A stretch of DNA of 64,000 bases from a virus. Below the pieces are notes generated by a model. It did no database searches. It saw only the letters and a list, made by a program, of their open reading frames with translations, and was not told the origin of the DNA. How positions within the stretch are numbered: the stretch's first letter is position 1; every line of letters begins with the position of its first letter. Location: positions 69,091-133,090 of IMG/VR virus record IMGVR_UViG_3300037493_005727. The stretch is one strand, 5' to 3'. The position numbers and the translations under genes were made by a program. Of the stretch, positions 8,880 through 51,200 are shown piece after piece.

Positions 8880-8891
8880 GAATCACCTTGG

Positions 8892-9446
8892 TTATGTGGA
8901 AATGGTGTTCGCTGAGTAAGAGACCAGCGAGATCTTCTTGTCTGTGTCCCGTAGCTTCTTCAATACTTCGAGCTCAGAGCGGGTTGTCCCCTTGTTGAGG
9001 TGGAAAGACCGCGCTACTTGAGCGAGACCGAATGCGTCGCAGATGTCATCCTGCGCAAAATCTTGCCCCCACTTCTTGAGTACTGCTTGACGCATCTGCT
9101 CTTTTTTAGCTTGACCGTGATCTGCCACGAACTGCTTCAACGACGCAGGCGGAACGATGATGAAAGGAACGGCGGCGTCGTGGAGAACGAGCTTCACCAC
9201 TGCGCCGACTTCGCCGAGCTCGAACACCCGCCCAGCGCCAACATCGTAGGCGTAGCCCTCGAGCGCGGCGTACTTGATGTCAGGCTCTGCGGCCAAGACG
9301 TCACGCAGCGCGTCGCGAATGCAGGCCAAGCGCGGCGCCCCTGTACGCTTCCCAGGGGTCACCGTCCCGGCGTACACGACCTCTTGATTCTCTGAAACTA
9401 CTGCTACCCCGGAACTGCGCAGCGACTGGTCAATTCCAAGGTACAT
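8892..9446 (-). CDS. RuvC-like Holliday junction resolvase
   Basis: MYLGIDQSLRSSGVAVV (RuvC motif I, GID-S), YAALEGYAY, and DICDAFGLAQVA (the terminal catalytic Asp region). Confidence 0.8.
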   Translation of the reverse strand: MYLGIDQSLRSSGVAVVSENQEVVYAGTVTPGKRTGAPRLACIRDALRDVLAAEPDIKYAALEGYAYDVGAGRVFELGEVGAVVKLVLHDAAVPFIIVPPASLKQFVADHGQAKKEQMRQAVLKKWGQDFAQDDICDAFGLAQVARSFHLNKGTTRSELEVLKKLRDTDKKISLVSYSANTIST

Positions 9447-19532: not shown

Positions 19533-19898
19533 ATGGCAGCCACGGTCATCAACTACACGCTGGTTCAGAGCACCATCCCGGGTCCCCCGGCGCAGTATCA
19601 GGTGCAGGCGACGATCAACACATCGCCAAACACCGGCACGTCGCTGTTCACGTACCGCTTCAGTGACGGCCTGTACGATCACGTGTCTACTACCGTGGAC
19701 CTGATGACGTACCCGACCGCGGCCAATCCTTCCTTCCCGTTCTACCGGCAGTCGACGGTGTCCTTTTTGTCCCAGAACGCAACCGAGGCCATCGACTTCT
19801 CCGCGATGGTCGAGTCTCGCTTGACGAGCCTGGCGAAAGAGTACGACGCAGTCGCGACGACCTTCGTGCCTGGTACGTACCCCATCGTTGTTCCGTAA
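19533..19898 (+). CDS. hypothetical protein, tandem paralog B
   Basis: 121 aa, homologous to 19109..19513 as described there. Confidence 0.6.
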   Translation: MAATVINYTLVQSTIPGPPAQYQVQATINTSPNTGTSLFTYRFSDGLYDHVSTTVDLMTYPTAANPSFPFYRQSTVSFLSQNATEAIDFSAMVESRLTSLAKEYDAVATTFVPGTYPIVVP

Positions 19899-19907
19899 GG
19901 ACGCACC

Positions 19908-21062
19908 ATGGCAACTACCCTCGGCCAGCACTGCACCGTCTTCCTGGACGTCGATGGGATCCAGCGGTTCAAGATCGTCTCCAGCGTCGACTCGGTCGAG
20001 GCGGGGGACCTCCCGCTCCACGGCGCCGCTCCGTACACCTCGTACATCTTCGTTCACAAGATCGTCGAGCCCACGGACGCCAAGGCTGACACGTTCCTTC
20101 GGGTTGGCAATGTCGCCGACCTCACCACCATCGCCATTGGGCGTGAGCTCGCGGTAGGCCTCGGGCAGTCGCTGTACCTGGCTATCGAGTTCACCGTCAT
20201 CTACGACGACATCGCCACGGCGAGCCAGGCGAAGACGCTCATTCAGCAGCGAGTCGACAACCTCATCGCCGACTGGCACAAGTACAACGAGGAGTTCCTC
20301 GCCCCTCTGACGACTCCGCCGGATCTCTCAACCATTCCCTTCCCGCTCACCCAGAGCGAAGAGGATGAACGCAAAGCAGCGTACGACGAGGCTCACGCAG
20401 AGCTCCTGGCGGCCAAGGCCGACTCCGCCCTCGCGGCGGTCGAAGCCTCGGCGTCCATCTCAGCGGCGGCTACCTGCAACGACGTCGCGTCCATCACCGT
20501 CGCGAACAGCCAAGAGTGCAGCAAGCTGCTGGGACAGTACAACGGCATCGTCACGGCTGAAGACGCCTTCCGCGGCGCTGTCACCTCATTCGCTCCGTCG
20601 GCGGTCACCTTCTCCGACGCATCGTTGGTCTTCTTCAACGCGTGTACGGCCTACCAGACGGCGAGCGCAACGTACATCAGCTACGGCATCACGCCGACTA
20701 CTCCACAGCGCCAGGCGTTCATGGATGCCAAGCTCACCTGGGATAACGCCCTCACCGCTTGGAACAATGTGCGGGTAACGTTCAACGCCGCGGGCCTCAA
20801 CTCGGCCATCGCAGCTGAGTCCATCAACGGCGCTCCCGCCATGGCGACTCTTCAGACCGACATGTCTAAGGCCTGCACGACAAAGATCTCCGAGGTCACG
20901 GCCGCTGCAAGCAAAAAAACAGAGTGCGACAAGGCGGCGGCCGAGGCCACGACCGCAAAGAAGGCAGCCGACGAAGCTCTGTCGGCCGCCCTCCTCGCAG
21001 ATACGCAAGCCTACCTCGAGGTCAAGGCCCTGTGCCCTGAGTTTGAACGCACTGTCCCGTAG
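19908..21062 (+). CDS. Ala/Thr/Ser-rich hypothetical protein (possibly virion-associated)
   Basis: 384-aa ORF. The opposite-strand ORFs (19518..20279-, 20586..21008-) are Arg/Gly-rich artefacts. Confidence 0.5.
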   Translation: MATTLGQHCTVFLDVDGIQRFKIVSSVDSVEAGDLPLHGAAPYTSYIFVHKIVEPTDAKADTFLRVGNVADLTTIAIGRELAVGLGQSLYLAIEFTVIYDDIATASQAKTLIQQRVDNLIADWHKYNEEFLAPLTTPPDLSTIPFPLTQSEEDERKAAYDEAHAELLAAKADSALAAVEASASISAAATCNDVASITVANSQECSKLLGQYNGIVTAEDAFRGAVTSFAPSAVTFSDASLVFFNACTAYQTASATYISYGITPTTPQRQAFMDAKLTWDNALTAWNNVRVTFNAAGLNSAIAAESINGAPAMATLQTDMSKACTTKISEVTAAASKKTECDKAAAEATTAKKAADEALSAALLADTQAYLEVKALCPEFERTVP

Positions 21063-21234: not shown

Positions 21235-22523
21235 GGGCGTACCTCCACTTTGTCCACATCTCCGAGGCGTCCATCAGACAGATGAGAGGCGACTTGGGAG
21301 ATCTTGGTAAGATCCGAGGTGTAGCGAGAAATCCAATTACCGTTCGTCCAAAGAACCGAAACGTAGCGGTCGTTACACCCCACAGCTGTGATGTATCTCC
21401 GATTCCCCCAACCGGTGGCCTGATAGCCGCGGCCAGTCTTGAGCGTGAGCCACAGCAGCGCTCGCAGCGTTGGATCTTTGACGGGCCCACGCTTCGCAGG
21501 CACGTCTGCTTCAATCAGCGCCAACCCAAAGGCCTTGGCGATGTCCTCGTACGTCTTGAGCATCCCGAACTCAGTGATTGACCCCTTGGCTCGGTGCACC
21601 GTCGCAACGACGCCGTCAGTGCCCTGTAGCTTGAGGCCTGTGAGCACAACGTTCCAGCGAGAGACCTTCGCGGTCTCCCCCATGTGCCGGGCAATCTCCC
21701 ATAGCTGCCACTCAGGCCAGGGGGATGCTTTCATCACCGCGGTGAGCCGACGGTCGGCTTCCTCGATGATGCTCGCTTCAGGCGGGTAGGCGCCCTTGCA
21801 GTGCGACGCCCTGTCGCAGCTGTCCTTGATGGGACATTTGACGCACTGCGTCTTCTTGAACCTCTTGGTGTCGGCTCCTTGAGTGGACGCCTCGGAGCGC
21901 TTCTTGTGGTTCTTCTCTGTTGCGTCGAAGTCGTGCTCCCAGTACGGGCGGATCGCCTTCGAGAATGCTTCTGTCCGTGTCGAACCAGGCTTCACGAGGG
22001 TGAACTCCCCCAGCTTGGTGTAGTGCTCCTGCACGTGCTCCCACAGGTCCTCAGCCTCGTGCGCTGGGGACAGCCTCGCTGGGAGCTCAATCCCGACTCC
22101 CTCAGACAAGCACTTCATCCCCTTGTCTGGGCAGTGCGTGCACCCCACCGCCTTGAACAAGGACAGGCACCGGTTGTAGCGCTGTCGCAGGTTCAGAGTG
22201 TATGGCTTCCCTTCGAGAAAGAATTGAAGATCCGGCGTATCGATCTTCGCGTCGTCCGGCAATTGCTCCGCAAGGTGCGTGGAGACGAGGACGAACTCCA
22301 TCTTCGGGGGCGTAGGCTTTTGGTTTCCCCACCAGCTGCTGTTGCGAGGCTGGGCGCCTGCGACCTGCGATACGAAGTACCCGTTTGAAAAGATCTTAGC
22401 GAGCTCCGGCAGGGCAGCTACCTTTTCGACGTCCAACGTCTCGAAGAGAAGAGAAGGGGTCGTAGAATCCTCCCGCCACCGGGATGAGTTGTTATCTGTG
22501 GCGGAACAGACGGTGTATCTCAT
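21231..22523 (-). CDS. hypothetical Cys-rich protein immediately downstream of the RT
   Basis: 430 aa with CTHCPDKGMKC and CVKCPIKDSCDRASHC clusters. ATGA overlap with the RT gene. Confidence 0.55.
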   Translation of the reverse strand: MRYTVCSATDNNSSRWREDSTTPSLLFETLDVEKVAALPELAKIFSNGYFVSQVAGAQPRNSSWWGNQKPTPPKMEFVLVSTHLAEQLPDDAKIDTPDLQFFLEGKPYTLNLRQRYNRCLSLFKAVGCTHCPDKGMKCLSEGVGIELPARLSPAHEAEDLWEHVQEHYTKLGEFTLVKPGSTRTEAFSKAIRPYWEHDFDATEKNHKKRSEASTQGADTKRFKKTQCVKCPIKDSCDRASHCKGAYPPEASIIEEADRRLTAVMKASPWPEWQLWEIARHMGETAKVSRWNVVLTGLKLQGTDGVVATVHRAKGSITEFGMLKTYEDIAKAFGLALIEADVPAKRGPVKDPTLRALLWLTLKTGRGYQATGWGNRRYITAVGCNDRYVSVLWTNGNWISRYTSDLTKISQVASHLSDGRLGDVDKVEVRP

Positions 22524-23716
22524 GTACCTGTCACCTCGAACGGTGGACTCTGGTTCTCGAGATCGACGGGTTCACTCTTCAGCTCCCCGTTTACGAACTC
22601 GAAGGAGGTGACGTCCTCCTGCTTGTGTGTCTCCTTCGCTTTCACGTAGAGCTTGAGCAGCTTCGCTGTCTTGTCCGGCGCGAACCGGGTGAAGTAGTTG
22701 AGCTTGCCTACGATCCACGCATGAAGCTGAGGTACAGACTCCTTCTTCGCGTACTTGAGCTGTGCCTCGAAGCCGTGCTGGTTCGCCTTGTAGAGGAGCA
22801 TGTGCATCTTGTTGTACTCGTTCGCTGGGATGTTCAGCTTACGATTGATGCTGATCCCCAAGAATCGTTGAGGACGCGACCAGTGCTGGACCTGCAGCTT
22901 CTTCCAGTTTACTCGGTAACCTGTGCTCTTGATGACGCGGTCAGCGGCTTGGATCACCTGAGAAACGTCGGGTGAGTTCAGCGGCTTGTCGTAGCTGAAG
23001 TACAGGTCGTCCGCGTACCTGGTGTAGCGCCACCCATCTGGTAGCGTCTTCATCAGCGGCTGGTCAATCTTCCAGTCGCACACCAGGTTGCAGATGTCCC
23101 CTGCCGTGAGCGCTCCCGGCGGAACACCGGTACGTGTCTTGTTCCGGTCGTCCCGGTAGTCGGTCGTGAGCAGCTGGCCCAAGAGCGACGAAGCGTAGTG
23201 GTTGTATCCAACGACCTCGTGGAAGTACTGGCGGATCCATGAACGGCGTGTCGACAAGAAGAAGTCCTTCAGGTCGAGCTTGAACTTGACCCCGCGTCGA
23301 GGGCAATCGTGCTTCACCGGGCTGGTGTGAGGCTTGGTCGTCTCGTCGCAGATCTTGCACTCGCGCAGGTGCAGTGACGCAGCGTCGATTGTGCTTTTAC
23401 CGAGCTGATAGGCCGCCACGTGCTGTCCCAGGTGTGTTGTCAGGGGCTGGAGGATGCGGCTCCGCATCTGCGCCTGGAAGATGCGCAGTAGGTCGTTGGG
23501 GTCGAAGGTTCGGCGCAGTCCGCCGGTCTTCTTCTTGACCATGAACTGCTTGTACATCTGGTCTCTGTGATCGACGATGTACCAGAACGTCTTTCCAGTG
23601 AACCCCAGCCGAAAGGCCAGAGTCCAGTCGTCGATGATGAACGGCACGTTGGGGAGATTTACGAGAGGAGCACGGACCTCGATCTTCTCGAGGAAGTTTT
23701 GTTTGTAGGTGGGCAT
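22520..23716 (-). CDS. reverse transcriptase (stand-alone prokaryotic RT, class unresolved; DGR-like motif 4)
   Basis: KKKTGGLRRTFDPNDLLRIFQAQMRSRIL (RT1-2), AAYQLGKSTIDAASLH (RT3), FKLDLKDFFLSTRR (motif A), GVPPGALTAGDICNLVCD (motif B', P-x-G-x-L-T-x4-N-L as in DGR RTs), RYADDLYFS (YADD catalytic box), FLGISI (motif D/E). Confidence 0.85.
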   Translation of the reverse strand: MPTYKQNFLEKIEVRAPLVNLPNVPFIIDDWTLAFRLGFTGKTFWYIVDHRDQMYKQFMVKKKTGGLRRTFDPNDLLRIFQAQMRSRILQPLTTHLGQHVAAYQLGKSTIDAASLHLRECKICDETTKPHTSPVKHDCPRRGVKFKLDLKDFFLSTRRSWIRQYFHEVVGYNHYASSLLGQLLTTDYRDDRNKTRTGVPPGALTAGDICNLVCDWKIDQPLMKTLPDGWRYTRYADDLYFSYDKPLNSPDVSQVIQAADRVIKSTGYRVNWKKLQVQHWSRPQRFLGISINRKLNIPANEYNKMHMLLYKANQHGFEAQLKYAKKESVPQLHAWIVGKLNYFTRFAPDKTAKLLKLYVKAKETHKQEDVTSFEFVNGELKSEPVDLENQSPPFEVTGT

Positions 23717-25396: not shown

Positions 25397-27028
25397 TTAC
25401 TCCTCCTTCATTTTGAACATCTCGATCAGTCGGTTGGGTGCGATGTTGTCCATCCCGTCACACGGCGAACAGTTGGGCATGAGCAGCCAGATGATGGGGC
25501 ACTGCGGTTGGTACTTCGGGAAGCATTCGCCCATCAGGCCGACGCCTCCGTCCGTACAGATGACCATCAGGTCGGGAGCAGGGTGCTTCTCCTGCAACCG
25601 AGGGGCTCCTTCGACCCAGTCTTCAGGTTCGTCGCAACCAGCGACTCGCTTGAAGAATGGCGTGTACACCGTACCCCCATGACCTCGGCGGTTCTGGAGC
25701 TCCTTGATGTACGCTTCATCAGGAGGCTCGACGTTGGTGACCTTCACTTCCTTCTGAAGGGCCGCGTCGCACTCGACGTAGGTCACGAAGACCGACTTGT
25801 TCTGAGCGAGCAGTGAGTTGATACAGGCGCAGGCACGGGCGTACTCGTCGTCTCCCATCGAGCCAGACGTGTCCGTCATCCAGGTGATGTTGTACCCGAA
25901 CTCCAGCATCTGCCCCGGCCACGGCTCCAGGTAGTCCTCGTTGATGAGCGACAGGTTCGGTGACCCCATCTCCTCATGCACTCGGGCGGTGATCGCTCCT
26001 TGGATGATGTCGCGGAGGAACGTGTCCCATGGAATCTGCTCAGGCTCGAGCAGCGCGTCGATGATCCTCTGGATGTTTCCCGCCATGTAGCCACGGTCGC
26101 GGTGCACGCGCTCGTTCGCCGCTCTCGCCAGTGATTGAGCGTGCTTCTTCATCTTCGTACCCGCGGAGATGGCTTCTTCCGGCGTCATCTCTTCGGCCTT
26201 CTCGTTCCACTGCTTGTGCGCCTTGCCGGACATCTTGTCGAAGGCCTTTTGCAGCTTCTCGAACGTCTCCGGATTGTTGATGGCCTGGTTGATCAGCGAG
26301 TCCGGGAGGCCAGGAATCTTGTTGGGTACCCCGCCTCCCTTCCCCTTTCCGAAGGGGCTCTCCATGACATCCCCGCTCCCCTCACCCTCGCCTCCTTCGC
26401 CTTCGTCGCCTTCCTCGCCTTCTCCGTCACCATCGACGAATTCGACGTCGCCGCGGTCAAGGGCGTCATTGAGATCCTTCAACATCTGCTCAACCTTGTT
26501 CTTGAACCCCTGGAGATCGTCGAGCATCAGCGTGAAGTACTCTTCCATCGAGAGCCCTGTGGGCATCCCGAACTCTTCAGGGAGCAGGAACGTCCATTCA
26601 CCGACCCCAACGCCTCGAGGGCGATGGACCTCTTTGAACTTTGGCTCCAAGCGAACAATGGCGTCGTTGGCCGCGAAGTCCGCCGCGAAGTTGAAGGTGG
26701 TCAGCACCGCCCTTCGGACGAACGGATCTGTACACGCCGCGAGCATCTTGAAGAGTCGCGGGATGTGATTCAGCGCGATGTGCGCTGCTTCGTGAACCAG
26801 GACGAGCAGCCTCATGTGAGGCGAGCACTGTTCAAAGAACGGCATGTGGCATGTGAGGACGTAGCGCCAGTTCTGCGTAAGGTGCACGGACATCGTGCCC
26901 TCGCTGTTGGTGTAGTTCTTCTGGCACCCGTTGATGAGCATGGCCCAGTAGTTGGCCGAACCGCGCCGCGATACCCAGTAAACCAGCGACTTCGCTAGTT
27001 CGTTTTCTTCAGGATTGGTGGTAGTCAT
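25397..27028 (-). CDS. VWA-domain protein with N-terminal HExxH metallopeptidase-like domain (DUF2201-type MoxR partner)
   Basis: LVHEAAHIALNH (HExxH); a poly-acidic linker GDGEGEEGDEGEGGEGEGSGD; a VWA/MIDAS-like WMTDTSGSMGDD...VICTDGG. The architecture is the one known to pair with MoxR AAA+ ATPases. Confidence 0.7.
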   Translation of the reverse strand: MTTTNPEENELAKSLVYWVSRRGSANYWAMLINGCQKNYTNSEGTMSVHLTQNWRYVLTCHMPFFEQCSPHMRLLVLVHEAAHIALNHIPRLFKMLAACTDPFVRRAVLTTFNFAADFAANDAIVRLEPKFKEVHRPRGVGVGEWTFLLPEEFGMPTGLSMEEYFTLMLDDLQGFKNKVEQMLKDLNDALDRGDVEFVDGDGEGEEGDEGEGGEGEGSGDVMESPFGKGKGGGVPNKIPGLPDSLINQAINNPETFEKLQKAFDKMSGKAHKQWNEKAEEMTPEEAISAGTKMKKHAQSLARAANERVHRDRGYMAGNIQRIIDALLEPEQIPWDTFLRDIIQGAITARVHEEMGSPNLSLINEDYLEPWPGQMLEFGYNITWMTDTSGSMGDDEYARACACINSLLAQNKSVFVTYVECDAALQKEVKVTNVEPPDEAYIKELQNRRGHGGTVYTPFFKRVAGCDEPEDWVEGAPRLQEKHPAPDLMVICTDGGVGLMGECFPKYQPQCPIIWLLMPNCSPCDGMDNIAPNRLIEMFKMKEE

Positions 27029-27035
27029 CAGGTCT

Positions 27036-27044
27036 CCTATACTT
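27036..27044 (+). promoter_or_regulatory. CTATACT box upstream of gene 27076
   Basis: tCCTATACTTcag, 31 nt before the ATG. That gene also has a GAGGTGG ribosome-binding site. Confidence 0.4.
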
Positions 27045-27075
27045 CAGTGGTTCAATCCTCTTTCGAGGTGGCACA

Positions 27076-28065
27076 ATGCCGATTGTCGATCAGTTCTCAG
27101 ACCCTGCCTTCGGTACGCTGTACCGCCAAGTCGCCCGCATGCCCGCTCTCGAGGCGTTCGTGAAGGAGGCCGCGGTCGTCGCCGATGAGGTTGGCGCTCT
27201 CCCCGACACCGCCTTCGCTTGGCCCGCTGAGCGCAAGTTCCCGATCCACACCCCTGAGCACGCAGCGCTGTCCTTCGCGTACTCCAAGGTTGCTTCCGTG
27301 CTCCCCACAGAAGTCCGCAGCAACATCGTGCAGGCTCTCGAGGTCTACGGCGTACCCGAGGACACCTTCGCAGAGCAGGAGATGAAGGTCGCCTCCGACG
27401 AGAACGACTACCTCGTTCCTGAGCACAGGCTCTTCCCGGTGAAGACCGCTGAGCAGTGCAAGCTGGCGCAAGACAACTTGGTGAGGAGCTTGTCGAAGCT
27501 CGACCTCGAGCACCGCGCCATCGCCTGCGGGAACCTCGTCAAGAAGGCCGACGCCCTTGGCGTTGAGCTCCGCCCCGAGGTGCTCCAGCTCGCGGGCTTG
27601 GTCGTGAGCAGCACCAAGACGGCGGCGCAGTGGCTCGACGCTCGGGCTTCTCAGCTCCCTGAGGGGGACACGTACAAGACGGCGTACGAGACCCTCGCGA
27701 ACCACATCCGGAAGGGTCCTGAGGAACTCTCTGAGCGCGCAGGTCTTCTCAAGGTCGCCGCAGCGATCGGTGAGCTCGATGAGAAGTCGGGCCTCGACAA
27801 GCACTACGACCGCCGCCTGCCTGACGCACTGCGTACCGTGTTCAACACGGAGAAGCTGGCCTCCAAGTCGGTGGATCTGGGTGGTACGTACATCACTGTC
27901 GCCAAGCTGGCTCAGCTCCCTGCGTCCTTCTGGGAGGACCTGGGCGGCAAGGAGCTCGGTGACGAGATCGCCCCCGGCGGCGTCGTGGATCAATCGAAGC
28001 TGGCTACCGTGGTGGACACGCTTCCGCTGGATCTCAAGATGCAGCTGAAGGCGCACTGTCGCTAA
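27076..28065 (+). CDS. hypothetical protein
   Basis: 329 aa with a GAGGTGG RBS. The opposite-strand 381-aa ORF (27097..28242-) is Arg/Leu-rich and rejected. Confidence 0.6.
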   Translation: MPIVDQFSDPAFGTLYRQVARMPALEAFVKEAAVVADEVGALPDTAFAWPAERKFPIHTPEHAALSFAYSKVASVLPTEVRSNIVQALEVYGVPEDTFAEQEMKVASDENDYLVPEHRLFPVKTAEQCKLAQDNLVRSLSKLDLEHRAIACGNLVKKADALGVELRPEVLQLAGLVVSSTKTAAQWLDARASQLPEGDTYKTAYETLANHIRKGPEELSERAGLLKVAAAIGELDEKSGLDKHYDRRLPDALRTVFNTEKLASKSVDLGGTYITVAKLAQLPASFWEDLGGKELGDEIAPGGVVDQSKLATVVDTLPLDLKMQLKAHCR

Positions 28066-28083
28066 CTTATTGGAGAATAAGTA

Positions 28084-28320
28084 ATGAACTTCTACCAACT
28101 TGGCGTCACAGACGCCCTCGCGAAATTCGCAGCCAGTCTTCCTCCGCGTCCCCCGCAAAAAGGCGCGCGTCCCTTCGGCGGTGCGTCGTCTGAGTCGCCG
28201 GGCGTGTCCGCGGTAGCGAAGCTGCCTACGGAGACGTCTCACTCCTCTGAGGCGCGTATCCCGGATCTAGGCCTCGACCTGCGGACGCCTTCTCGAGCGG
28301 CCAAGAAAACAACTGCGTGA
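28084..28320 (+). CDS. small hypothetical protein
   Basis: 78-aa ORF preceded by GGAGAATAAGTA. Confidence 0.4.
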   Translation: MNFYQLGVTDALAKFAASLPPRPPQKGARPFGGASSESPGVSAVAKLPTETSHSSEARIPDLGLDLRTPSRAAKKTTA

Positions 28321-29042
28321 ATCTCTCCGAGCTTCAGCGAACTCTGGCGAAAGAGGCCTACGCGGCTTTCTTCCGCACGCCCACGAACGCCCAGAAGGCG
28401 CATGCCAGGACGGTGATGCAGGACTGCGAAGCAGCAGCTACGGCGGTGTTCATCGCTGCCAGGCATCTCCTGGGCCCTACGTTCATTTCTTACGAGCCTG
28501 AGACGCTGTGGTTGGAGCTGGACCCCTGTCACTCGAACAGGGACAAGCTATCCGCAGCCATCGCTCTGGCGATGACCCCGAGCTTCTACTGGGACTACCG
28601 GGTCTTCGGGGCCACAGTGCACGCTCTGAATGACGAGATGGTTTCCCCTGAGGCGGTGCCGCACTGTTCACCCGCCGCGATGGCCTGGGCGACTTTCGAG
28701 GCTGAGCTCTTGTTCGCGCTGTCGGACGGGGAGTCAACGAGGCCCGAGTTCGACGAAACCATTGAGGCGTACGTCGCGGTCTGCTTGTTCGATGAGGGTC
28801 TGACCCTGCCTCCAACAGGCCTCAGCTTCGCGGCTGAAGAGCTTGGGCGGAAGGTCAGCGCGGACGCCTTGAACCTGAAAAAAGAGACCGCCGCAGCCTG
28901 GGCCGCGCTCCCCAAGGAGAAGCTCGAACAAAAGAAGTTCGAGAACTCCCCCCTGGGGGCGCAGCTGGAGAAGCTGGCTACTTCTTGGGTGTACGTCCAA
29001 GAGCGAACGAAGCTGCTGAGAAGCCACTTAGAGAAGCTCTAG
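28317..29042 (+). CDS. hypothetical protein
   Basis: 241 aa, ATGA-chained to the preceding ORF. Confidence 0.5.
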   Translation: MNLSELQRTLAKEAYAAFFRTPTNAQKAHARTVMQDCEAAATAVFIAARHLLGPTFISYEPETLWLELDPCHSNRDKLSAAIALAMTPSFYWDYRVFGATVHALNDEMVSPEAVPHCSPAAMAWATFEAELLFALSDGESTRPEFDETIEAYVAVCLFDEGLTLPPTGLSFAAEELGRKVSADALNLKKETAAAWAALPKEKLEQKKFENSPLGAQLEKLATSWVYVQERTKLLRSHLEKL

Positions 29043-29274
29043 GCTTCTTTGGTTTCTTCGGCTTCAGCTCCTCGGGGTCCTCGACGTAGTAGTTCTTTTC
29101 CCCGTTGGGGCATTCTTCGCGCATGACGACCAAGCAGCGATCAATACTCGCTTGACCGTCGCCGTAGGACTTCACTTCGTTTTGACAGCGCGTACAGGTC
29201 GCACAGACACTCGGGATACTCTGTCCGTGATCTCCCCGCCGGGAAATGTAGTCGATCTCACAGAGGACTTTCAT
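28978..29274 (-). CDS. hypothetical zinc-finger protein
   Basis: CATCTRC...C...CPNGEK. ATGA overlap with the MoxR gene stop at 29271-29274. Confidence 0.4.
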   Translation of the reverse strand: MKVLCEIDYISRRGDHGQSIPSVCATCTRCQNEVKSYGDGQASIDRCLVVMREECPNGEKNYYVEDPEELKPKKPKKPRASLSGFSAASFALGRTPKK

Positions 29275-30551
29275 GCCGTTTCCATCGGGTCTTTGCTCTT
29301 ACCCCGCCCGTGAATCTTCTTCTCTTGTTCGTCGTGAATCCGGTTGATGCGGTCGTTGATCTCCTTCCACAACGGGTACTGGCGATTCGCGACCGTGAGG
29401 TCCTGCATGTACTTCAGGTTCTTCGGTTCCCCGATTCCCCCATGAGCTTGACAGGCTGCGTCGAGCATGGCGTAGAACGGCTGCGCCTGCTCCACCGGCA
29501 TGTCATGCCAGAACTGAACGAGCTGCGGCGCGATGGTCTGGGGCTCAGGCCGTTCACGGAAGATGAACTGCGCGACCTCGTTGACCAGGCTGGTGTAGTC
29601 CCCGCCCGCCTCCTTCTGGAGGTCCAGAACACGAGAGCGGAGCTTGCTCTTCGGCTTGTAGTCGTAGAGCACCGCCTCCGGGGAGATGATGATCTCGTTG
29701 TTCTTGATGAAGGCGCAGAGCGTCTGCGCATTCACGGTGTTGATTGAGGCAGCCAGGCGGAGCTCAGCTTTCTCGCTGTGCAGGTCCACCTTCGCCGCCT
29801 CGAGGTTGTAGAGGGACAGCGAGACCGTCTGCCACGTGGCCGGGCAGGCGAACTGCTTGTTTCCGTCTCGGTCCTTGGCGGTGTACAACATCGCCGGTGT
29901 GGCAGTGAGCAGGCGCACCACCATGGGGTGGCAGGGGCGCCCGCCCTCGAAGTCCGTGTAGTGGAACTCCGGCGTGAGCGCGTGCTTCTTCCAGTCGCTG
30001 AACGTGTTGTACACGTACGCCTTCATCAGGCGGCGATTGAACGCCGAGTTGGTCTCGATCTTCGTGACGTTGTACCCCGCCGTTGAGGGATTCATCAGCG
30101 CGACAATGACGCAGTCGTCTGGTAGGGTGTAGTCGTAGATTCCCCGGTCCTCGAGGAACTTGAAGAACAGAGCGATTGCGTGCTGCTGCCCCTGGTTGAT
30201 TTCATCGAAGATGAGGATGCACTTCTCCCCCTGCTTGGGGTAGTCGTTCGGGATAGCGATCTTGAAGTGTCCCGTTTCATCTGCCCTCTGCGGAACACCG
30301 GCTCCGATCATGGAGAACTGCGACGTGCGAATGTCTACGACCCGCCTTCCGTGCTTCCGAGCGAGCTGGTGAATGCCCTGCGACTTCCCTTCTCCGGCTT
30401 CCGAGATGAGGCACCAAACCCCGCGGGTCTGCTCCATCTCGATGCTGAGGTCGATCTGCCACAGCGCTTCTGTCAGGGTCATGCGCGGGATTCCATAGCG
30501 ATCCCAGTACGCTTCTCCGTGAACGACTTTGTCCTGTGCTGCGTTGCTCAT
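29271..30551 (-). CDS. MoxR-like AAA+ ATPase
   Basis: ISEAGEGKSQGI (Walker A-like GxxGxGKS), ILIFDEINQGQQH (Walker B DE plus sensor), ALMNPSTAGYN...AFNRRL (MoxR/CbbQ-type arginine finger region). Confidence 0.8.
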   Translation of the reverse strand: MSNAAQDKVVHGEAYWDRYGIPRMTLTEALWQIDLSIEMEQTRGVWCLISEAGEGKSQGIHQLARKHGRRVVDIRTSQFSMIGAGVPQRADETGHFKIAIPNDYPKQGEKCILIFDEINQGQQHAIALFFKFLEDRGIYDYTLPDDCVIVALMNPSTAGYNVTKIETNSAFNRRLMKAYVYNTFSDWKKHALTPEFHYTDFEGGRPCHPMVVRLLTATPAMLYTAKDRDGNKQFACPATWQTVSLSLYNLEAAKVDLHSEKAELRLAASINTVNAQTLCAFIKNNEIIISPEAVLYDYKPKSKLRSRVLDLQKEAGGDYTSLVNEVAQFIFRERPEPQTIAPQLVQFWHDMPVEQAQPFYAMLDAACQAHGGIGEPKNLKYMQDLTVANRQYPLWKEINDRINRIHDEQEKKIHGRGKSKDPMETA

Positions 30552-30574: not shown

Positions 30575-32191
30575 ATGACTCAAATGAACATCGGCACGAA
30601 GCGGTTGTCGGAAGTCGCAGAGGGTCTGCTCTGGCTGGACGGCGCCCCGTTCAGCTTGGATGACTACCCGATGTACCGGAACATCTACGACGGACGCTAC
30701 AAAGCGACTCTCCTGATGTGTGGCCGACAGGTGGCCAAGTCGACATCCCTGGCGAACTTCATCATCTCGGAGTCTGTCGCTCTTCCGTTCTTCCGGTCCT
30801 ACTACGTCTCTCCTTCAAAAGAGCAGACGCTGATCTTCTCTAACACACGTGTGGGTAAGACGCTTTCGTACTCCCCCATTGTGAAGAAGTTCTTCCAGTC
30901 CCCGGAGCACGCAGACCGCGTGCTTCACCGCTCGTACACCAACGGATCCGAGAACGCGTTCACCTACGCCTGTGATGACGCCGACCGCGCTCGAGGCTTC
31001 TCAGCTGATCGAGTCAGCTACGACGAGTTCCAGGACATGCTGTACGACTCAGTGGTTCCCGTCATCAACGCCTGCATGAAGAACTCGAACTACCGCTTCG
31101 AGACCTACGCAGGAACGCCGAAGACGATGGAAGCCAGCATCCAGTACCTCTGGGACAAGTCGTCTCAGAGCGAGTGGGTGATGAAGTGCGACGGCTGCTC
31201 GAAGTACAACTTCGTCGTCGACGAGAAGTCCCTAGGACTGCACGGGCCCATCTGCCTCAACTGCGGTAAGGTGCTCAACCCCCGTATCGGGCAGTGGGTC
31301 GACATGAAGAAGGTCGATTCCAAAACCGGGAGACACTCGGTGAAGGGGTTTCACATCCCCCAGCTGATCATGCCTCTGAACATCCCGTCTTGCGTGAACA
31401 ACACGCCGGAAAAGCCGGATGCCAAAAAAGACGCTCAAGAGCGTTGGGACGACATCCTTCGAGACCACGACATGTTCTCGTCGGCGAAGTTTCGCAACGA
31501 GGTGTTGGGAGTCTCTGACGCCATCGGTCGTCGTCTCATCTCTCTCGAGGAGCTTGAGGCTCTTTGTACGGGCCCTAAGATTTCAGCGTACCCCGACAAG
31601 AATCTCGAGGGATGCACCGTCACCTTCGCCGGGGTGGACTGGTCTGGCGGCGGGACCACTGGAGTAAGCCGCACCGTGCTTTGGATCTGGGGCTGGCACC
31701 CCGGCAGTCAGAAGCTACGGACGCTGTACTACCGCATCTACCCTGGCAACAACGCCGTCACGGACGTCGAGGACATCGCCAAGATTTGTCAGCAGTACTC
31801 AGTCGCTCTGGTTGTCGGAGACGCTGGAGAAGGCGCTCTGCCTAACGCCACCCTTCGCGCTCGCCTTGGTGCCCACCGAGTGACGATGGTGCAGTACGGC
31901 GCGCTGGGCCAGCCCATCAAGTGGAACGGTCTCGACCGATACTTGGCTGACCGAACCACGCTGATCGACAACTACCTCATGTTCCTGAAGAGAGGCGCGG
32001 TGGTCTACCCGCCACAGGAAGAGGCGCGGGAAGCCATCAAGGACATCCTCAACGTCTACGAAGAGGTGACCACCGCGGGCAAGAAGGTGTGGAGGCACAG
32101 CCCACAACTCCCAGATGATTGTCTCCACGCCCAGCTCTTTGGGTGGTTCGCCTCGAAGATTCACATGAACGACCTTAAGTTCTACGCTTAA
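30575..32191 (+). CDS. terminase large subunit
   Basis: LLMCGRQVAKSTSLANF (Walker A) and the T7 gp19-like ATPase/nuclease layout (...FQDMLYD..., DAGEG). The track ORF begins at 30536, but that would overlap the divergent MoxR start (30551). The Met at 30575, after GGTGGTGG, is preferred; the Met at 30584 is also possible. Confidence 0.75.
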   Translation: MTQMNIGTKRLSEVAEGLLWLDGAPFSLDDYPMYRNIYDGRYKATLLMCGRQVAKSTSLANFIISESVALPFFRSYYVSPSKEQTLIFSNTRVGKTLSYSPIVKKFFQSPEHADRVLHRSYTNGSENAFTYACDDADRARGFSADRVSYDEFQDMLYDSVVPVINACMKNSNYRFETYAGTPKTMEASIQYLWDKSSQSEWVMKCDGCSKYNFVVDEKSLGLHGPICLNCGKVLNPRIGQWVDMKKVDSKTGRHSVKGFHIPQLIMPLNIPSCVNNTPEKPDAKKDAQERWDDILRDHDMFSSAKFRNEVLGVSDAIGRRLISLEELEALCTGPKISAYPDKNLEGCTVTFAGVDWSGGGTTGVSRTVLWIWGWHPGSQKLRTLYYRIYPGNNAVTDVEDIAKICQQYSVALVVGDAGEGALPNATLRARLGAHRVTMVQYGALGQPIKWNGLDRYLADRTTLIDNYLMFLKRGAVVYPPQEEAREAIKDILNVYEEVTTAGKKVWRHSPQLPDDCLHAQLFGWFASKIHMNDLKFYA

Positions 32192-48201: not shown

Positions 48202-51200
48202 ATGGCGCTGACATCCGTGCTCACCGATGCCGAGTCCCGGCGGACTCAAATCCGAGCGAAAGCGCTTGAGGCGCTCCGCGCCGCCTTTCCCTTGCCCCTT
48301 AGGGACAAGCAGATCCAAGTCTCTGATCTGCAGGTCCACCACAAAGACTACGGGCCGAACGACCAGAAGCAGGCGCTGCTCAGCGGCGGATCCCTCTTCG
48401 AGCCCGTCAAGGGGACCATCACTCTTCGAGGCGCTGACGGCAAAGAGATCGAGAAGGTAAAAGGTTTTACCTTGCTCAACCTCCCGTTCTTCACTGGGCG
48501 GCACACCTTCATCTTGGACGGCAACGAGTACAACGTCTCAAACCAGCTCCGTCTGAAGCCGGGCGTGTACACTCGACGGCGAGGAAACGAAGAGCTCGAA
48601 GCGGCCTTCAACCTTTCGAAGGGGGCTAACTTTCGGTTGTCCCTGGACCCCGCCCAAGGGCACCCGTACGTCGAGTACGGAACTACCGCCATTCCGCTTT
48701 ACTCAGTATTGCGGAAGTTGGGAGTCCCGCACGCAGACATCTCGTCGCACTGGGGATCCGATGTAGCGGGGCAGAACGAGGCTGCGTTCGCAGGGAAGCA
48801 CGACAAGCACCTCGCCAAGCTCTACGAGAAAGTGACGCATCCGTCCAAGCGCACGGCCACCAACCCTGAGACGCAACTAGAGGCAGTGCGCGCCGCTTAC
48901 GCTGCGACCGCGATGGACCCTGAGGTCAACAAGGAGACTCTGGGGCACGAGTTCTCGTCGGTCACCCCTCAGGCGCTGCTGGTTGCGTCGAAGCGCCTCC
49001 TCAACGTCTACAAGAACAACGCCCCTGTAGATGATCGTGACGCTCTGCAATTCAAGACCTATCACTCGGTCGACGACTTCATCAAAGAGCGCATCACTCT
49101 CGACGCCCGAGCCCTGGCCAGCAAGGTGAAAGGGCGGGCGACGCACAAGACCGGGCTCCGAGAAATCCTCCCGTCGTCGCCTTTCTCTGGTGGCATCCGG
49201 AGCTTCCTCACCGGCTCACAGCTGAGCTCGATTCCGACGCACATCAACCCGATGGAGGCCATTGATCACGCCGTTAGGGTTACTTCTCTGGGTGAAGGCG
49301 GCATTGCCAACGAACGGGCAATCCCCGCAGAAGCCCGAACCATCCACTCAAGCCATCTCGGTATCCTGGACCCGATTCGTACCTCAGAGTCGTTCCGTGC
49401 AGGCATCGACATCCGTACGGCATTCGGGGCTCATCGGGATGAGCGAGGGAATCTGTACACGATGGTAAAGGATGTGAAAACAGGTAAGGGGGTCATGCTC
49501 TCGGCGTCTGAGATGTCTAGCGCCGTGGTGGCATTCCCGAAGCAGAAGATGTCTGGGATGATCGCCGCGATGGACAAGGGAGAAGTCGCTCACGTCCCTG
49601 CGTCCAAGGTGACCCACGAACTCTACGACGCTGCTCAGCTCTACTCTCCCGCGACGAACCTCGTACCCTTCCTCGAGTCTGTTCAGGGGAACCGTGGAAT
49701 CATGGGCGGCAAGGTTCAGACGCAGGCTCTACCGCTCGTTCACAGAGAAGCTCCCCTCGTACAGTCGGGGGTCTCTTCATCGGACAAGAACGGACAAAGC
49801 ATCAGCTGGGAGCGGCAGCTCGCTCACCTCGCGCTCCCCGTTTCTCCCGTTGCAGGGAAGGTAGTGAAGATCGACGGGCAGTACATCTACATCGACCCGT
49901 CTGGGAAGAAGCACGCTGAGGACTTCGGGATCGAGAAGAACTCGTTCGAGAAGCGCGGCGGGGCAGTCAAACGACAGAAGACCATCAAAGGACTTTGCTT
50001 CAAGCTTGAGCTCGAGCCTGGAGACATCCGCTCTGGCGTATCCCCCGAAGGTAAGAAGTGGGAGAAGAAGATGTCCCTCGCCTACGGGCACATTCCCAAG
50101 ACGGTTGGGGATGACGGCGAGACCGTAGACATCTACTTGAAGGAAGATGGCGTCTTCGATCACGTGTACGTTGTTCGTCAGAAGAAGCGCGACGGATCAC
50201 ACGATGAAGATAAGTGCATGGTGGGGTTCGACTCGAAGGACGCCGCGAAAGACGCCTACGAGAAGCACGGACCGGAATGGGGTTACGGGTCGTTGGAAGA
50301 GTATACCTGGGATGAGTTCCAGGACGACTACCTTTCAGAGCGGCAGCGCGAGAAGGCCGCTGCTGAGAAGGATCTCGTACGCGTTCCGTATGACAGCAAC
50401 TTGCCTTTCGCGTCCAAGACCTATCTACACCACGATCTCTTAGTGAAGCCGGGGGACCACGTCACCGCTGACCAGCATCTCGCTGAGTCCAACTTCACGC
50501 GGGACGGCGCCTTTGCTCTGGGCCGCAACATGACCATCGGGTACATCCCTTACTACGGGATGAACTCGAACGACGCTGTCGTCATTTCGGAGGGCGCTGC
50601 GGACAAGCTCACGTCTGAGCACATGTACAAGGAGATCGTTGAAGTCGAGAGGGACGCAATCGTGGGGCGCGACGTCCACCAGCAGTACTACGGGCCCAAG
50701 TACACCGCGGAACAGTACCGCAAGCTCGACGCCAACGGCGTAGTACGCAAGGGCATGAAGGTGATGCCTCACGACATCCTGATCGCCGGAGTTACCAAAG
50801 GAAAACTTTCCGCGTCAGACGCCCTGCTAGGCAACCTGAAGAAGACTCTGGTTCACCCCTATCGCGAGCTCGTTCGCACCTGGGATCACGACTACGAGGG
50901 GGACGTCATCGACGTGCACGTCACAGACAAGCGCGTCGTGGTGACCGTTAGGACGAAAGAGCCGATGCGCGTCGGCGACAAGCTCACGGGACGGCACGGA
51001 AACAAGGGCGTTGTTTCCATGATCGTACCGGACCACAAGATGCTTCAGGATGAGAAGGGTAAGCCGCTCGAGGTGCTCTACACCTCAGCAGGCGTCATCT
51101 CGCGTATCAACCCGGCGCAGATTCTTGAAACGGTGGTAGCCAAGGTCGCCAAGAAGATTGGGAAGCCCATCATCGTTGAGAACTTCTCGGGGAGGGACAA

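Follow-up and report, generated by a model that had tools for sequence, protein, structure and literature searches.

A phage MoxR-type ATPase and its metallopeptidase-VWA partner interleaved with a conserved terminase-linked gene unit

In an uncultured phage with a genome of ~190 kb, a MoxR-type ATPase and a metalloprotease–VWA adaptor are encoded on the same strand and separated by genes of the opposite strand, which raises the question of whether the interposed genes invaded a once contiguous pair and what such a pair does in a phage. We analysed a stretch of 64,000 nt, here called the window (IMG/VR record IMGVR_UViG_3300037493_005727, positions 69,091 to 133,090), for which a first-pass annotation had proposed a three-gene insertion. 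The ORFs, motifs and orientations that it described were all borne out, coordinates included (Table 1). Concerning the insertion, our analysis points elsewhere: with a probability of roughly 0.6, the pair is a phage MoxR-VWA remodelling machine and p329-p241 are a terminase-linked unit and not an insert. This reading builds on direct observation of domain identities, motif conservation, structural class, a gene order that is old and invariant, and gene sets that are separable.

Table 1 Features of the MoxR-VWA locus in the window.
Feature	Coordinates	Strand	Remark
384-aa gene	19908..21062	+	homologue adjoins p329 in the lineage lacking ATPase and VWA genes
Retron-type reverse transcriptase (RT)	22520..23716	-	RVT_1, PADLOC RT_XIII
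VWA protein, 543 aa	25397..27028	-	coordinates as in the first-pass annotation
Divergent intergenic region, 47 nt	27029..27075	.	carries CTATACT box
p329, 329 aa, conserved	27076..28065	+	
p78, 78-aa ORF	28084..28320	+	window-specific, low complexity
p241, 241 aa, conserved	28317..29042	+	
Cys-rich ORF, 98 aa	28978..29274	-	downstream of ATPase
MoxR-class AAA+ ATPase, 426 aa	29271..30551	-	
Large terminase subunit (gpA type), TerL	30575..32191	+	GpA_ATPase, phrog_675

The VWA protein passes the Pfam gathering cut-offs of both DUF2201_N (32.2 bits versus 23.2; E = 1.1e-7) and DUF2201 (32.0 versus 26.4; E = 1.5e-7). Its N-terminal zincin-like domain carries HEAAH at 79-83 and H88, i.e., HExxH(x4)H, and is followed by a Gly/Glu/Asp-rich linker (~190-225) and a C-terminal VWA domain, whose MIDAS is intact with D386-x-S388-G-S390, T453 and D493 all present. 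Across an alignment of 19 homologues, which took in cultured N4-like and Bacillus phage proteins, the HExxH residues, including the catalytic Glu, and the MIDAS residues are invariant down to 21% identity. Searches of the PDB with the C-terminal half matched 9das (4e-5) and the integrin alpha-X I domain (0.04). With the Pfam cut-offs passed and the residues invariant, the architecture proposed initially, a zincin, an acidic linker and a MIDAS-VWA domain of the DUF2201 type, is upheld.

Conserved motifs of the ATPase are Walker A (AGEGKS, with K56 invariant), Walker B (D116 E117), sensor-1 N154 and R173/R174. Pfam returned no match for the window protein at E<=0.1, while members of its family pass the AAA_5 cut-off and phrog_1297 is matched at 4.6e-36. 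Its AF2 model (pLDDT 82.7) shows a helix-2 insert ahead of the Walker B strand, a hairpin preceding sensor 1 and additional helices at the C terminus. In Foldseek, its best compact matches were CbbQ (6l1q) and NorQ (9qh4/9qh6), with TM 0.60-0.62, rmsd 5.5-6 Å and an identity of just 11-14%, versus TM below 0.45 for RFC, FtsH and RuvB. Searching PDB sequences with the ATPase family profile returned only weak Clp/Hsp104 matches. Family membership and the predicted structure thus support assignment to the MoxR class (AAA_5, CbbQ/NorQ-like), and a non-MoxR clade, which would have contradicted the first-pass annotation, was not indicated by the best structural and family matches. The domain search recovered DUF2201_N, DUF2201 and, in family members only, AAA_5, but not CbbQ_C, which Pfam did not find in the window ATPase. 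The motif comparison further indicates a derived active site in the clade with split genes: the sensor-2 arginine, kept in phage homologues of the adjacent type, has given way to another residue (Ala238 in the window) and two Arg-finger residues stand side by side (R173 R174 in the window), so that the catalytic cycle may differ.

The order VWA(-) / p329(+) p241(+) / ATPase(-) / TerL(+) is invariant in ~90 related metagenomic loci (L001-L038, 52 out of 55 of L044-L098 and 14 among L099-L112), whose ATPases share 35-93% identity and whose VWA proteins reach down to 21-24%. Invariance over this range of ATPase identity implies that the interleaving is ancient, and judged by these sequences it is fixed in a whole uncultured clade of ~165-195 kb phages. 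Surveying contiguity of the pair, we found the two genes adjacent in none of the clade loci, whereas outside the clade all 43 viral loci with both genes have them on the same strand, 37 of these adjacent. In three loci of a related lineage, p329-p241-TerL are contiguous, ATPase and VWA genes are absent within 8 kb, and a homologue of the 384-aa gene of the window (tblastn of L069_6920_7975, 5e-13) lies directly upstream of p329. In the neighbour-joining tree of TerL, loss of the pair in this lineage received a bootstrap of 68% and the alternative polarity 27.5%, so that either direction of change may apply. Because p329-p241 stay contiguous with TerL without the pair and the pair is adjacent elsewhere, the interposed genes belong with the terminase, and we regard p329 and p241 as a transcription unit of their own that is evolutionarily tied to its large subunit.

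A CTATACT box at 27037-27043 on the plus strand, assigned to the cassette by the first-pass annotation, is indeed present; it is one of six copies in the window (~1 expected), all on the plus strand and preceding p329, RNAP-like and further plus-strand genes. Most relatives keep a TATACT/TATAAT box ahead of their p329 orthologue; it is missing where another plus-strand gene precedes p329. On the reverse strand, the CTATACT box directly adjoins the VWA gene's Shine-Dalgarno sequence. We consider it a -10-like box, i.e., a putative promoter of p329-p241. At the TerL end of the locus, the mechanical TerL ORF (Pfam GpA_ATPase 1.1e-8; phrog_675 5.6e-42) begins at GTG 30536, and its relatives align from ~residue 14-24; taking the first in-frame ATG at 30575, 23 nt separate the start codons of TerL and the divergent ATPase, in agreement with the ~25 bp estimated before.

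Three plus-strand ORFs do lie between the partners, of which only p329 and p241 are conserved. p329, found in every related locus and matching 2457 representative clusters at E<=1e-3, is mostly helical with repeated beta-beta-alpha 'FAWPxxRxFPIH' units; its AF2 model (pLDDT 85.5) matched no fold in the PDB and only uncharacterised phage proteins in BFVD, and its family signals are limited to phrog_16160 and a sub-threshold DUF6582 motif. p241 always follows p329 directly and precedes TerL, all three sharing one strand. A small terminase subunit is usually encoded at this place, and p241 is a candidate for one; it had no matches in the PDB, Pfam, PHROG or cultured phages. p78 is preceded by a GGAGA ribosome-binding site, but it is doubtful as a real gene: tblastn found no counterpart in related loci, including a 93%-identity relative in which 20 nt separate p329 from p241. 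The 98-aa Cys-rich ORF, whose start overlaps the ATPase stop (ATGA) and which shares 65 nt with p241 at its 3' end, likewise has no homologue in any related locus. Since 58 out of 76 relatives have overlapping 3' ends of ATPase and p241 or leave at most 20 nt between them, the spacer with this ORF is a minority state.

Among known systems, the window pair is by sequence a distant relative of gp24/gp25 of phage N4. tblastn and HMM matches fall on ATPases and DUF2201 proteins of N4-like phages, PA5oct and Bacillus phage BpSp; for N4-like phages, tblastn gave 5e-8 to 8e-4 (ATPase) and 8e-5 (VWA protein), and profiles gave 1e-15 and 2e-95, respectively. N4 gp24/gp25 and their Schitoviridae orthologues likewise combine an AAA_5-type ATPase with a DUF2201_N/DUF2201 protein bearing HExxH and MIDAS. 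In N4 they are known as AAA and vWFA genes of unknown function (PMC2784036, PMC10783043), the vWFA gene is one of 14 N4-like core genes (PMC10783043), and in roseophage RPP1 structural genes adjoin their homologues (PMC4193335). Unlike the window proteins, the N4-like ones are shorter (340 and 398 aa), their ATPases have only one Arg finger and retain the 'PR' arginine of sensor 2, and the pair is not located beside the terminase; in the N4-like Pantoea phage G19 both genes are adjacent on one strand. They are also adjacent in the jumbo phage BpSp, whereas in Pseudomonas phage PA5oct small ORFs of the same strand and a homing endonuclease lie between them, in contrast to the conserved antisense unit of the window. 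Iyer et al. 2021 (PMC7824862) described a MoxR AAA+ and metallopeptidase-vWA chaperone-cochaperone pair in 'group 2.2' jumbo phages and proposed that it serves virion assembly, including peptidolytic processing; by this description, its N-terminal metallopeptidase fused to vWA is the same domain architecture. Of the roles suggested by the first-pass annotation, capsid/terminase maturation or host takeover, the former had been put forward there before. Among cellular systems, NorD and CbbO are laid out like the phage adaptor, with a specificity domain at the N terminus, a disordered linker and a MIDAS-VWA domain at the C terminus, but they have no zincin domain and their targets are cellular metalloenzymes (nitric oxide reductase maturation; Rubisco activase). 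In contrast to NorQ and CbbQ, the ATPase of the window is extended at its C terminus by ~130-150 aa and is devoid of the sensor-2 Arg, and no CbbQ_C was detected in it.

In NorQD-type systems each hexamer binds a single adaptor, which contacts an acidic target residue through its MIDAS (PMC9976466, PMC13036017). If the phage pair works like NorQ-NorD and CbbQ-CbbO, its ATPase would form a hexameric ring onto which a single copy of the 543-aa protein would dock via its VWA domain, and the MIDAS metal would capture an acidic residue of the target protein. ATP hydrolysis could then pull on the adaptor through the flexible acidic linker, and the remodelled target may be held or cleaved by the N-terminal zincin domain. 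Besides hexamer-adaptor docking and proteolysis, we infer the target, for which our best, albeit tentative, guess is phage proteins of the virion or of packaging that undergo processing in the course of assembly. The role proposed for this architecture in jumbo phages (PMC7824862) and the structural genes beside the RPP1 homologues (PMC4193335) are in line with this guess. N4 gp24/gp25 are middle and not late genes (PMC4193335), an observation that does not favour an assembly target.

This timing would suit a middle-gene device for host takeover or counter-defence, which would act on host proteins, e.g., defence or housekeeping factors, by recognising, remodelling and cleaving them. Its place among terminase-linked genes would then be an inherited accident of interleaved early/middle (minus) and late (plus) units. 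We consider such a device rather unlikely. Also in line with it are the invariant zincin Glu, the restriction of CTATACT boxes to the plus strand and the location of the pair on the minus strand together with replication genes (PolA, exonuclease, helicases, RNR, RT). The reverse transcriptase (RVT_1 at 1.4e-16; RT_XIII at 6.5e-46) belongs to the minus-strand block of the VWA gene with synteny kept across the clade, and we view it as genomic context of the pair, with a functional partnership only hypothetical. However, the pair matched none of the PADLOC defence and candidate families and shows no known anti-defence homology, and while genes for counter-defence tend to evolve fast and to be patchily distributed, this pair is core and slowly evolving, given the ATPase identities in the clade and the core status of the gp25-type gene in N4-like phages.

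Alternatively, all five genes might form one module, with p329 and p241 as substrates or cofactors of MoxR-VWA that together act on the terminase, portal or procapsid in packaging or head maturation, and selection for co-regulation maintaining the interleaving. Such a module could take the form of a non-contiguous operon, its ATPase-to-VWA minus-strand transcript running antisense through late p329-p241. Non-contiguous operons with an embedded antisense gene are described in Staphylococcus aureus, and the likeness is purely architectural, consisting in functionally paired same-strand genes split by opposite-strand genes with overlapping or abutting ends, a layout that would force transcriptional interference. 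We judge the module unlikely. The exceptionless order, the tight junctions (divergent spacers of 47 and 23 nt in the window) and the close 3' ends argue for it, as do the proposal that this architecture serves virion assembly (PMC7824862) and, as cited in PMC7824862 and PMC7159879, the virus-encoded MoxR-vWA pair of Acidianus two-tailed virus, which is required for tail assembly and implicated in virion morphogenesis, although this is an archaeal virus and its pair has no peptidase domain. Yet synteny inside one clade can be mere inheritance, and minus-strand terminator-like hairpins (consensus matches only) lie at 28885-28943, downstream of the ATPase. Moreover, p329-p241-TerL exist without the pair, and the pair exists without p329/p241 in N4-like phages, PA5oct, BpSp and dozens more viral loci, a separability in both directions that speaks against any obligate functional tie to packaging.

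Insertion of a metal cofactor into a phage metalloenzyme, e.g., ribonucleotide reductase, comparable to NorQD, CobST and BchID, is improbable. Chelatase D subunits (BchD/CobT) carry an acidic linker ahead of the VWA domain, as the phage adaptor does, and a gene for an RNR large subunit is present in the window. NorQ and CbbQ, the closest structural relatives, mature metalloenzymes (PMC9976466, PMC13036017), but the zincin HExxH with its invariant Glu, absent from NorD, CbbO and CobT, is indicative of peptidase chemistry, and in related loci the pair showed no conserved linkage with RNR or any other metalloenzyme gene. Hardly credible is the interruption first proposed, in which a mobile, oppositely oriented three-gene cassette recently entered a contiguous operon: other phages have the pair contiguous and co-directional, the cassette has a promoter-like box of its own and GC at 27-29 kb (0.61-0.63) slightly exceeds that of its neighbours (0.58-0.60), but this is inside the window range of 0.55-0.65, transposase, integrase and flanking repeats were looked for and not found, and the reading was rejected on the interleaved order of the ~90 loci and the persistence of p329-p241 beside TerL where the pair is absent.

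Together, a remodelling machine interleaved with terminase-linked genes remains our preferred reading. The interposed genes represent an ancient, conserved terminase-linked unit, and, since the MoxR and metallopeptidase-vWA architecture is already known in phages, the locus is a modest variant of a known pair.

Throughout the clade of uncultured phages to which the window belongs, the genes of the MoxR-class ATPase and its VWA partner are separated by two oppositely oriented genes, p329 and p241, and the gene of the large terminase subunit (TerL) follows beyond the ATPase. The first-pass annotation had described a pair interrupted by a three-gene insert. Its ORF positions were all reproduced by our ORF call, and the insert reading has to be given up: wherever the contig was long enough for the order to be read, all loci found with the ATPase (L001-L038, ATPase identity 35-93%) carry PolA / TerL(-) / ATPase(+) / p241(-) p329(-) / VWA(+) / ... 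/ RT, the same interleaving is present in 52 of the 55 loci found with p329, and it recurs in 14 loci found with the VWA protein, including lineages at 21-24% VWA identity. In the window the VWA gene lies 2.2 kb from the ATPase gene with the strand shared, and across this split clade it always accompanies the ATPase where the contig allows. Nothing resembling a mobile element was found in the p329-p241 cassette, the GC content of which (0.61-0.63) falls inside the range of the window.

Features of the window discussed in the text, with position, strand and basis of the assignment
Feature	Position	Strand	Basis
CTATACT	19093, 19518, 27037, 48188, 58174, 62921	+	motif scan
57-nt direct repeat, 72% identity	19256-19312, 19647-19703	+	
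Homologue of the 351-aa gene	19908..21062	+	
Reverse transcriptase (RT), 398 aa	22520-23716	-	RVT_1 1.4e-16
VWA protein gene, 543 aa	25397..27028	-	ORF call
p329 gene, 329 aa	27076..28065	+	ORF call
78-aa ORF	28084..28320	+	ORF call
p241 gene, 241 aa	28317..29042	+	ORF call
98-aa Cys-rich ORF, start on ATPase stop codon	28978..29274	-	ORF call
ATPase gene, 426 aa	29271..30551	-	ORF call
TerL, gpA-type, beyond ATPase	first in-frame ATG 30575	+	Pfam GpA_ATPase 1.1e-8, phrog_675 5.6e-42
Multisubunit RNA-polymerase beta/beta'-like proteins	48202-53016, 54490-56289	+	phrog_24349, 25354, 3295, 3015

The 78-aa and 98-aa ORFs, located at the p329/p241 and p241/ATPase junctions, respectively, have no counterpart in about 90 related loci, a relative at 93% identity included, and since the length of these sites differs between relatives (0 to about 1 kb), both junctions are hot spots of small accessory ORFs. 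The 78-aa ORF itself is of low complexity and has a GGAGA ribosome-binding site. At the convergent 3' ends of the ATPase and p241 genes, 58 of 76 distinct loci show an overlap or a distance of 20 nt or less. On the other side of the ATPase, the TerL ORF formally opens at GTG 30536, and relatives align only from about residue 14-24; taking this alignment start together with the first in-frame ATG, the start codons of the two divergent genes are 23 nt apart, in agreement with the approximately 25 bp reported before.

Whether related phages keep the pair contiguous depends on the clade. Among 65 other viral loci outside it, both genes were found in 43, in all 43 on one strand and in 37 of them at most 350 nt apart, and the pair occurs there without p329 or p241. 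It is likewise together on one strand in the phages Pantoea G19 and Bacillus BpSp; in PA5oct, small ORFs of the same strand and a homing endonuclease separate the ATPase and VWA genes. N4-like phages conserve MoxR-VWA pairs that have a fused zincin domain, several jumbo phages carry them as well, and we know of no target or phenotype for any of them. Mention of MoxR-VWA pairs in phages dates back to 2007 (PMC2147016), the N4 genes gp24/gp25 were described as AAA and vWFA genes of unknown function (PMC2784036) that belong to the middle-gene transcripts (PMC4193335), and the vWFA gene is listed among the N4-like core genes (PMC10783043). In contrast to the adjacent, co-directed arrangement of the gp24/gp25 type, the pair of the window's clade is always split by the opposite-strand p329-p241.

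Three related loci, two on contigs of 187-191 kb and one on a contig of 64 kb, form a lineage in which the pair is missing at this site. Their TerL is 44-46% identical to that of the window (BLASTP; 45-48% over the trimmed alignment), and a 351-aa gene, p329, p241 and TerL are contiguous on one strand, with PolA next on the opposite one; within 8 kb, even at E=10, neither an ATPase nor a DUF2201 match was obtained. The three contigs are IMGVR_UViG_3300037467_002824 (191 kb), 3300013121_000044 (187 kb) and 3300044797_000034. The 351-aa gene has a homologue in the window, which differs from these loci in two ways: this homologue is separated from p329 by a minus-strand block (p430, RT, small genes, VWA), and the ATPase sits between p241 and TerL. 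As the unit exists without the pair and the pair without the unit, the gene sets are separable both ways, with p329-p241 travelling with the terminase. In a neighbour-joining tree of TerL rooted on phage Arash, the branch of one split locus, L112, lies below that of the ATPase-less lineage, with a bootstrap of 68% versus 27.5% for the alternative. Judged by this tree, loss or relocation in the ATPase-less lineage appears somewhat favoured over a later gain, at a bootstrap that is not decisive. In L098, one locus of the ATPase-less lineage, a 161-aa ORF (8578-9063, +) occupies the p241/TerL slot that the ATPase fills in the window's clade; by eye it contains CxxC and 'RCNRLK' motifs and looks HNH-like.

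The two proteins of the unit gave no PDB sequence match, no tblastn match in cultured phages and no informative PHROG or Pfam match. The p329 family is large, with 2457 clusters at E<=1e-3 and 198 at E<=1e-30 among 1.84 billion representatives, and 17 of 17 members consistently match phrog_16160 (unknown function). The p329 model (pLDDT 85.5) is mostly helical with repeated beta-beta-alpha units, found no fold match in the PDB and only uncharacterised phage proteins in BFVD, and the longer proteins of the family revealed no informative fused domain. An assignment of p329 to Pfam DUF6582 was rejected, with 16.4 bits against a cut-off of 27.3 and a match confined to a 26-residue motif. For p241, none of 17 family members had a Pfam, PHROG or PDB match. 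Its place directly upstream of TerL, the position of a small terminase subunit, is suggestive as a matter of position only; no similarity to a known TerS family was found for the 17 members in Pfam, PHROG or PDB, and the TerL relatives Arash and Riggi have no annotated TerS beside TerL.

With regard to the source of the window, the contigs carrying ATPase and VWA homologues reach about 196 kb, an identical copy of the p329 protein is encoded on a 190,250-bp metagenomic contig, and further genes of the window include PolA, an RNase T-like exonuclease, helicases, the RNR large subunit and multisubunit RNA-polymerase-like proteins, so that contig sizes and gene content identify a large, uncultured dsDNA phage. 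Compared with 50,697 phage records, the window showed no DNA-level similarity to cultured phages; scans for Rfam families and tRNAs gave no matches, and neither did an NCBIfam and PADLOC search with the four core proteins. As a route to the host, GTDB genomes yielded one match only, on a probably mis-binned phage contig: the only species-representative genome with an ATPase relative (L178; QMZE01000001.1, 'MAG: Archaeoglobales archaeon B35_G2', 78,677 bp) is identical in length, coordinates and match statistics to the IMG/VR viral contig 3300014914_000004 (L030), and mis-binning of a phage contig into an archaeal MAG is its most likely origin. Within the RNA-polymerase-like proteins of the window, a segment of about 130 aa (590-720) of the 1604-aa protein is matched by families that bear the labels minor head protein, virion structural protein or endolysin, and this protein could be a virion-associated RNAP fusion.

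The domain composition predicted for the VWA protein was confirmed, as both DUF2201_N (putative metallopeptidase; 32.2 bits, gathering score 23.2) and DUF2201 (VWA-like; 32.0 bits, gathering score 26.4) exceed their Pfam thresholds. In an alignment of 19 homologues down to 21% identity, among them those of the N4-like Pantoea G19 and of the jumbo Bacillus phage BpSp, H79, E80, H83, H88, N113, D117 and N121 of the N-terminal domain and D386, S388, G389, S390, G451-G452-T453 and D493 of the VWA domain are invariant, indicating that the HExxH and the full MIDAS (DxSxS...T...D), on the integrity of which the initial assignment depended, are intact and under selection. The family profile matched the PDB entries 9das (4e-5) and integrin alpha-X (0.04) over exactly the MIDAS motifs; its zincin half had no PDB sequence match, neither a solved structure nor an assay turned up for that domain, and the linker between the two domains is variable and rich in Gly, Glu and Asp. 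Residues 62-465 also match phrog_1314 (2.6e-31), labelled 'HNH endonuclease', which looks like a mis-annotation and may have spread from records like PA5oct, with its true homing endonuclease between the ATPase and DUF2201 genes.

The window's ATPase had no Pfam match at E<=0.1 and no NCBIfam match; it matches phrog_1297 'ATPase' (4.6e-36). Of the two domains expected, AAA_5 was found in relatives and CbbQ_C, also searched for, was not: the split-clade ATPases P0103, P0113 and P0114 score 30.6-35.5 bits for AAA_5 (PF07728; cut-off 22), the gathering score is also exceeded by N4-like, PA5oct and BpSp homologues, two proteins touch AAA_3, and precomputed PF07728 matches exist for more divergent homologues. 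Across 22 aligned sequences, G53, G55 and K56 of the Walker A motif (S50-E-A-G53-E-G55-K56-S57) are invariant, its first position being Gly in most clade members, as are the sensor-1 N154 ('MNP') and the Arg-finger R173/R174, and Walker B (LIFD116E117) is conserved. Against PDB sequences, the single sequence gave chance matches only and the family profile weak Clp/Hsp104 matches at the P-loop and Walker B, and the classification therefore needed a structure model and Foldseek. With the AlphaFold (AF2) model (mean pLDDT 82.7), compact PDB superpositions were restricted to the MoxR ATPases CbbQ (6l1q, TMt 0.62, rmsd 5.5; cso-CbbQ 5c3c, 0.55-0.58) and NorQ (9qh4/9qh6/9qhd, TMt 0.59-0.62), whereas RFC/clamp loaders, FtsH, RuvB and p97, at similar E-values, had TM <0.45 and rmsd 11-22 A. 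A helix-2 insert and a beta-hairpin before sensor 1 mark AAA+ clade 7, which contains MoxR. In the model, helix 76-83 is separated from the Walker B strand 111-116 by an insert of some 27 residues (84-110), in which G85, P87, F96, P101 and P105 are invariant and the pLDDT is low (58-64). Short strands 137-138 and 141-142 form a hairpin ahead of strand 147-153. Motifs, AAA_5-passing relatives, CbbQ/NorQ as best folds and these two elements together argue against a non-MoxR clade, and the MoxR assignment of the first-pass annotation is upheld. Beyond the AAA+ module, the protein has approximately 130-150 residues of extra helices.

Aligning the split-clade ATPases with phage ATPases that have an adjacent VWA partner, we observed two differences in the active site. 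The Arg of 'P-R-x-W' at the start of the lid helix is lost in all split-clade ATPases, including those of the most divergent loci L108, L109 and L112, and the window's protein reads C-P237-A238-T-W with A238 invariant in the clade, whereas P-R occupies the aligned position in the ATPases of PA5oct, BpSp and the N4-like G19 and in others of the adjacent type. The Arg-finger position is a doubled Arg (NRR, RRR, LRR) in all split-clade ATPases and a single Arg (NRF, DRF, SRL) in PA5oct, BpSp, N4-like and other phage ATPases. The lost Arg would be sensor 2, judging from the model, in which this site opens helix 237-252, and from the motifs of MoxR proteins, where we take the position of A238 to be that of the 'SPR'-type motif (start of lid helix alpha7). 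Classical AAA proteins have no sensor-2 Arg and use two SRH arginines instead, so the change need not inactivate the ATPase. At the level of the alignment, it does mark the split clade as a derived variant.

The cassette had been credited with its own CTATACT box, which is borne out by the motif scan: there are six copies in the window, all on the plus strand, versus about one expected, three of them with an ATG 8-11 nt further on, pointing to near-leaderless transcripts, and one 33 nt before the start of p329. In most relatives, the short spacer between p329 and its divergent neighbour contains a TATACT/TATAAT box, which is missing where p329 is preceded by another plus-strand gene, a pattern indicating that the box of the p329-p241 unit is real and conserved. 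In the window, the Shine-Dalgarno sequence of the VWA gene borders directly on this box from the opposite strand, and a sigma-70 consensus scan of 25-32.5 kb gave no full promoter match. CTATACT may be the late promoter element of the phage. Replication genes, RT, ATPase and VWA gene are on the minus strand, p329-p241, TerL and the RNA-polymerase-like genes on the plus strand, where the structural genes presumably also lie, and from box and strand pattern the arrangement suggests interleaved early/middle and late transcription units. CTATACT also precedes each of two adjacent small plus-strand ORFs that are linked by a 57-nt direct repeat and are probably tandem paralogues.

The RT shares the minus-strand block with the VWA gene, a synteny kept in every related locus. 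In PADLOC it matches retron RT type XIII best (6.5e-46) and other retron RT types next; the Rfam scan of the window detected no retron RNA. A diversity-generating element (DGR) was dismissed, with no template/variable-type repeats in 17-31 kb and an RT that is retron-like instead. A retron-type RT as core gene of a large phage clade is worth a study of its own.

A mechanistic frame is offered by NorQ-NorD (PMC9976466, PMC13036017). There, each MoxR hexamer binds a single VWA protein, a finger of the VWA domain inserts into the pore, the MIDAS contacts acidic residues of the target and not the ATPase, and the disordered segment that joins the N-terminal specificity domain to the VWA domain is stretched as ATP is hydrolysed. 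The phage adaptor shares this three-part layout with NorD and differs in its N-terminal domain, a zincin with an invariant catalytic Glu. Its clade-specific insert around D466-D470-W471, between T453 and D493, is a candidate for the loop that would enter the pore and be contacted by the helix-2 inserts, as in NorQD. By analogy, from which we infer all that goes beyond domain identity, the most economical reading would be an ATP-driven remodelling machine that is targeted through its MIDAS and coupled to proteolysis. In a separate reading, the interleaving itself may be functional, as a non-contiguous operon that combines a temporal switch, coupling the remodelling machine to DNA packaging, with a rewired active site. 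The minus-strand MoxR-VWA transcript would run antisense through the late, terminase-linked p329-p241 unit, with the ATPase antisense between p241 and TerL; late plus-strand transcription, once switched on, would turn the chaperone-protease off, and the reverse, and the clade-specific rewiring of the site, with loss of the sensor-2 Arg and doubling of the Arg finger, would belong to a specialisation for head or terminase maturation. For these elements jointly, our estimate is a probability of roughly 15%, which makes this an unlikely proposal.

The pair as such is already known. Of the two functional suggestions of the first-pass annotation, capsid or terminase maturation and host takeover, the former is known too, from a proposal for the same architecture in jumbo phages (PMC7824862). 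New are the membership of an uncultured clade, its fixed antisense interleaving with a terminase-linked unit, the related lineage without the pair at this site and the derived ATPase motifs. Together, these provide handles on the function of the pair: the invariant gene order places it around a terminase-linked late unit, the lineage that keeps this unit without the pair at the site is a natural comparison, and the active site of the ATPase is derived. If the link to packaging is false, the locus is one more member of an already described family; if it is true, a widespread phage gene pair would be placed in a functional context for the first time.
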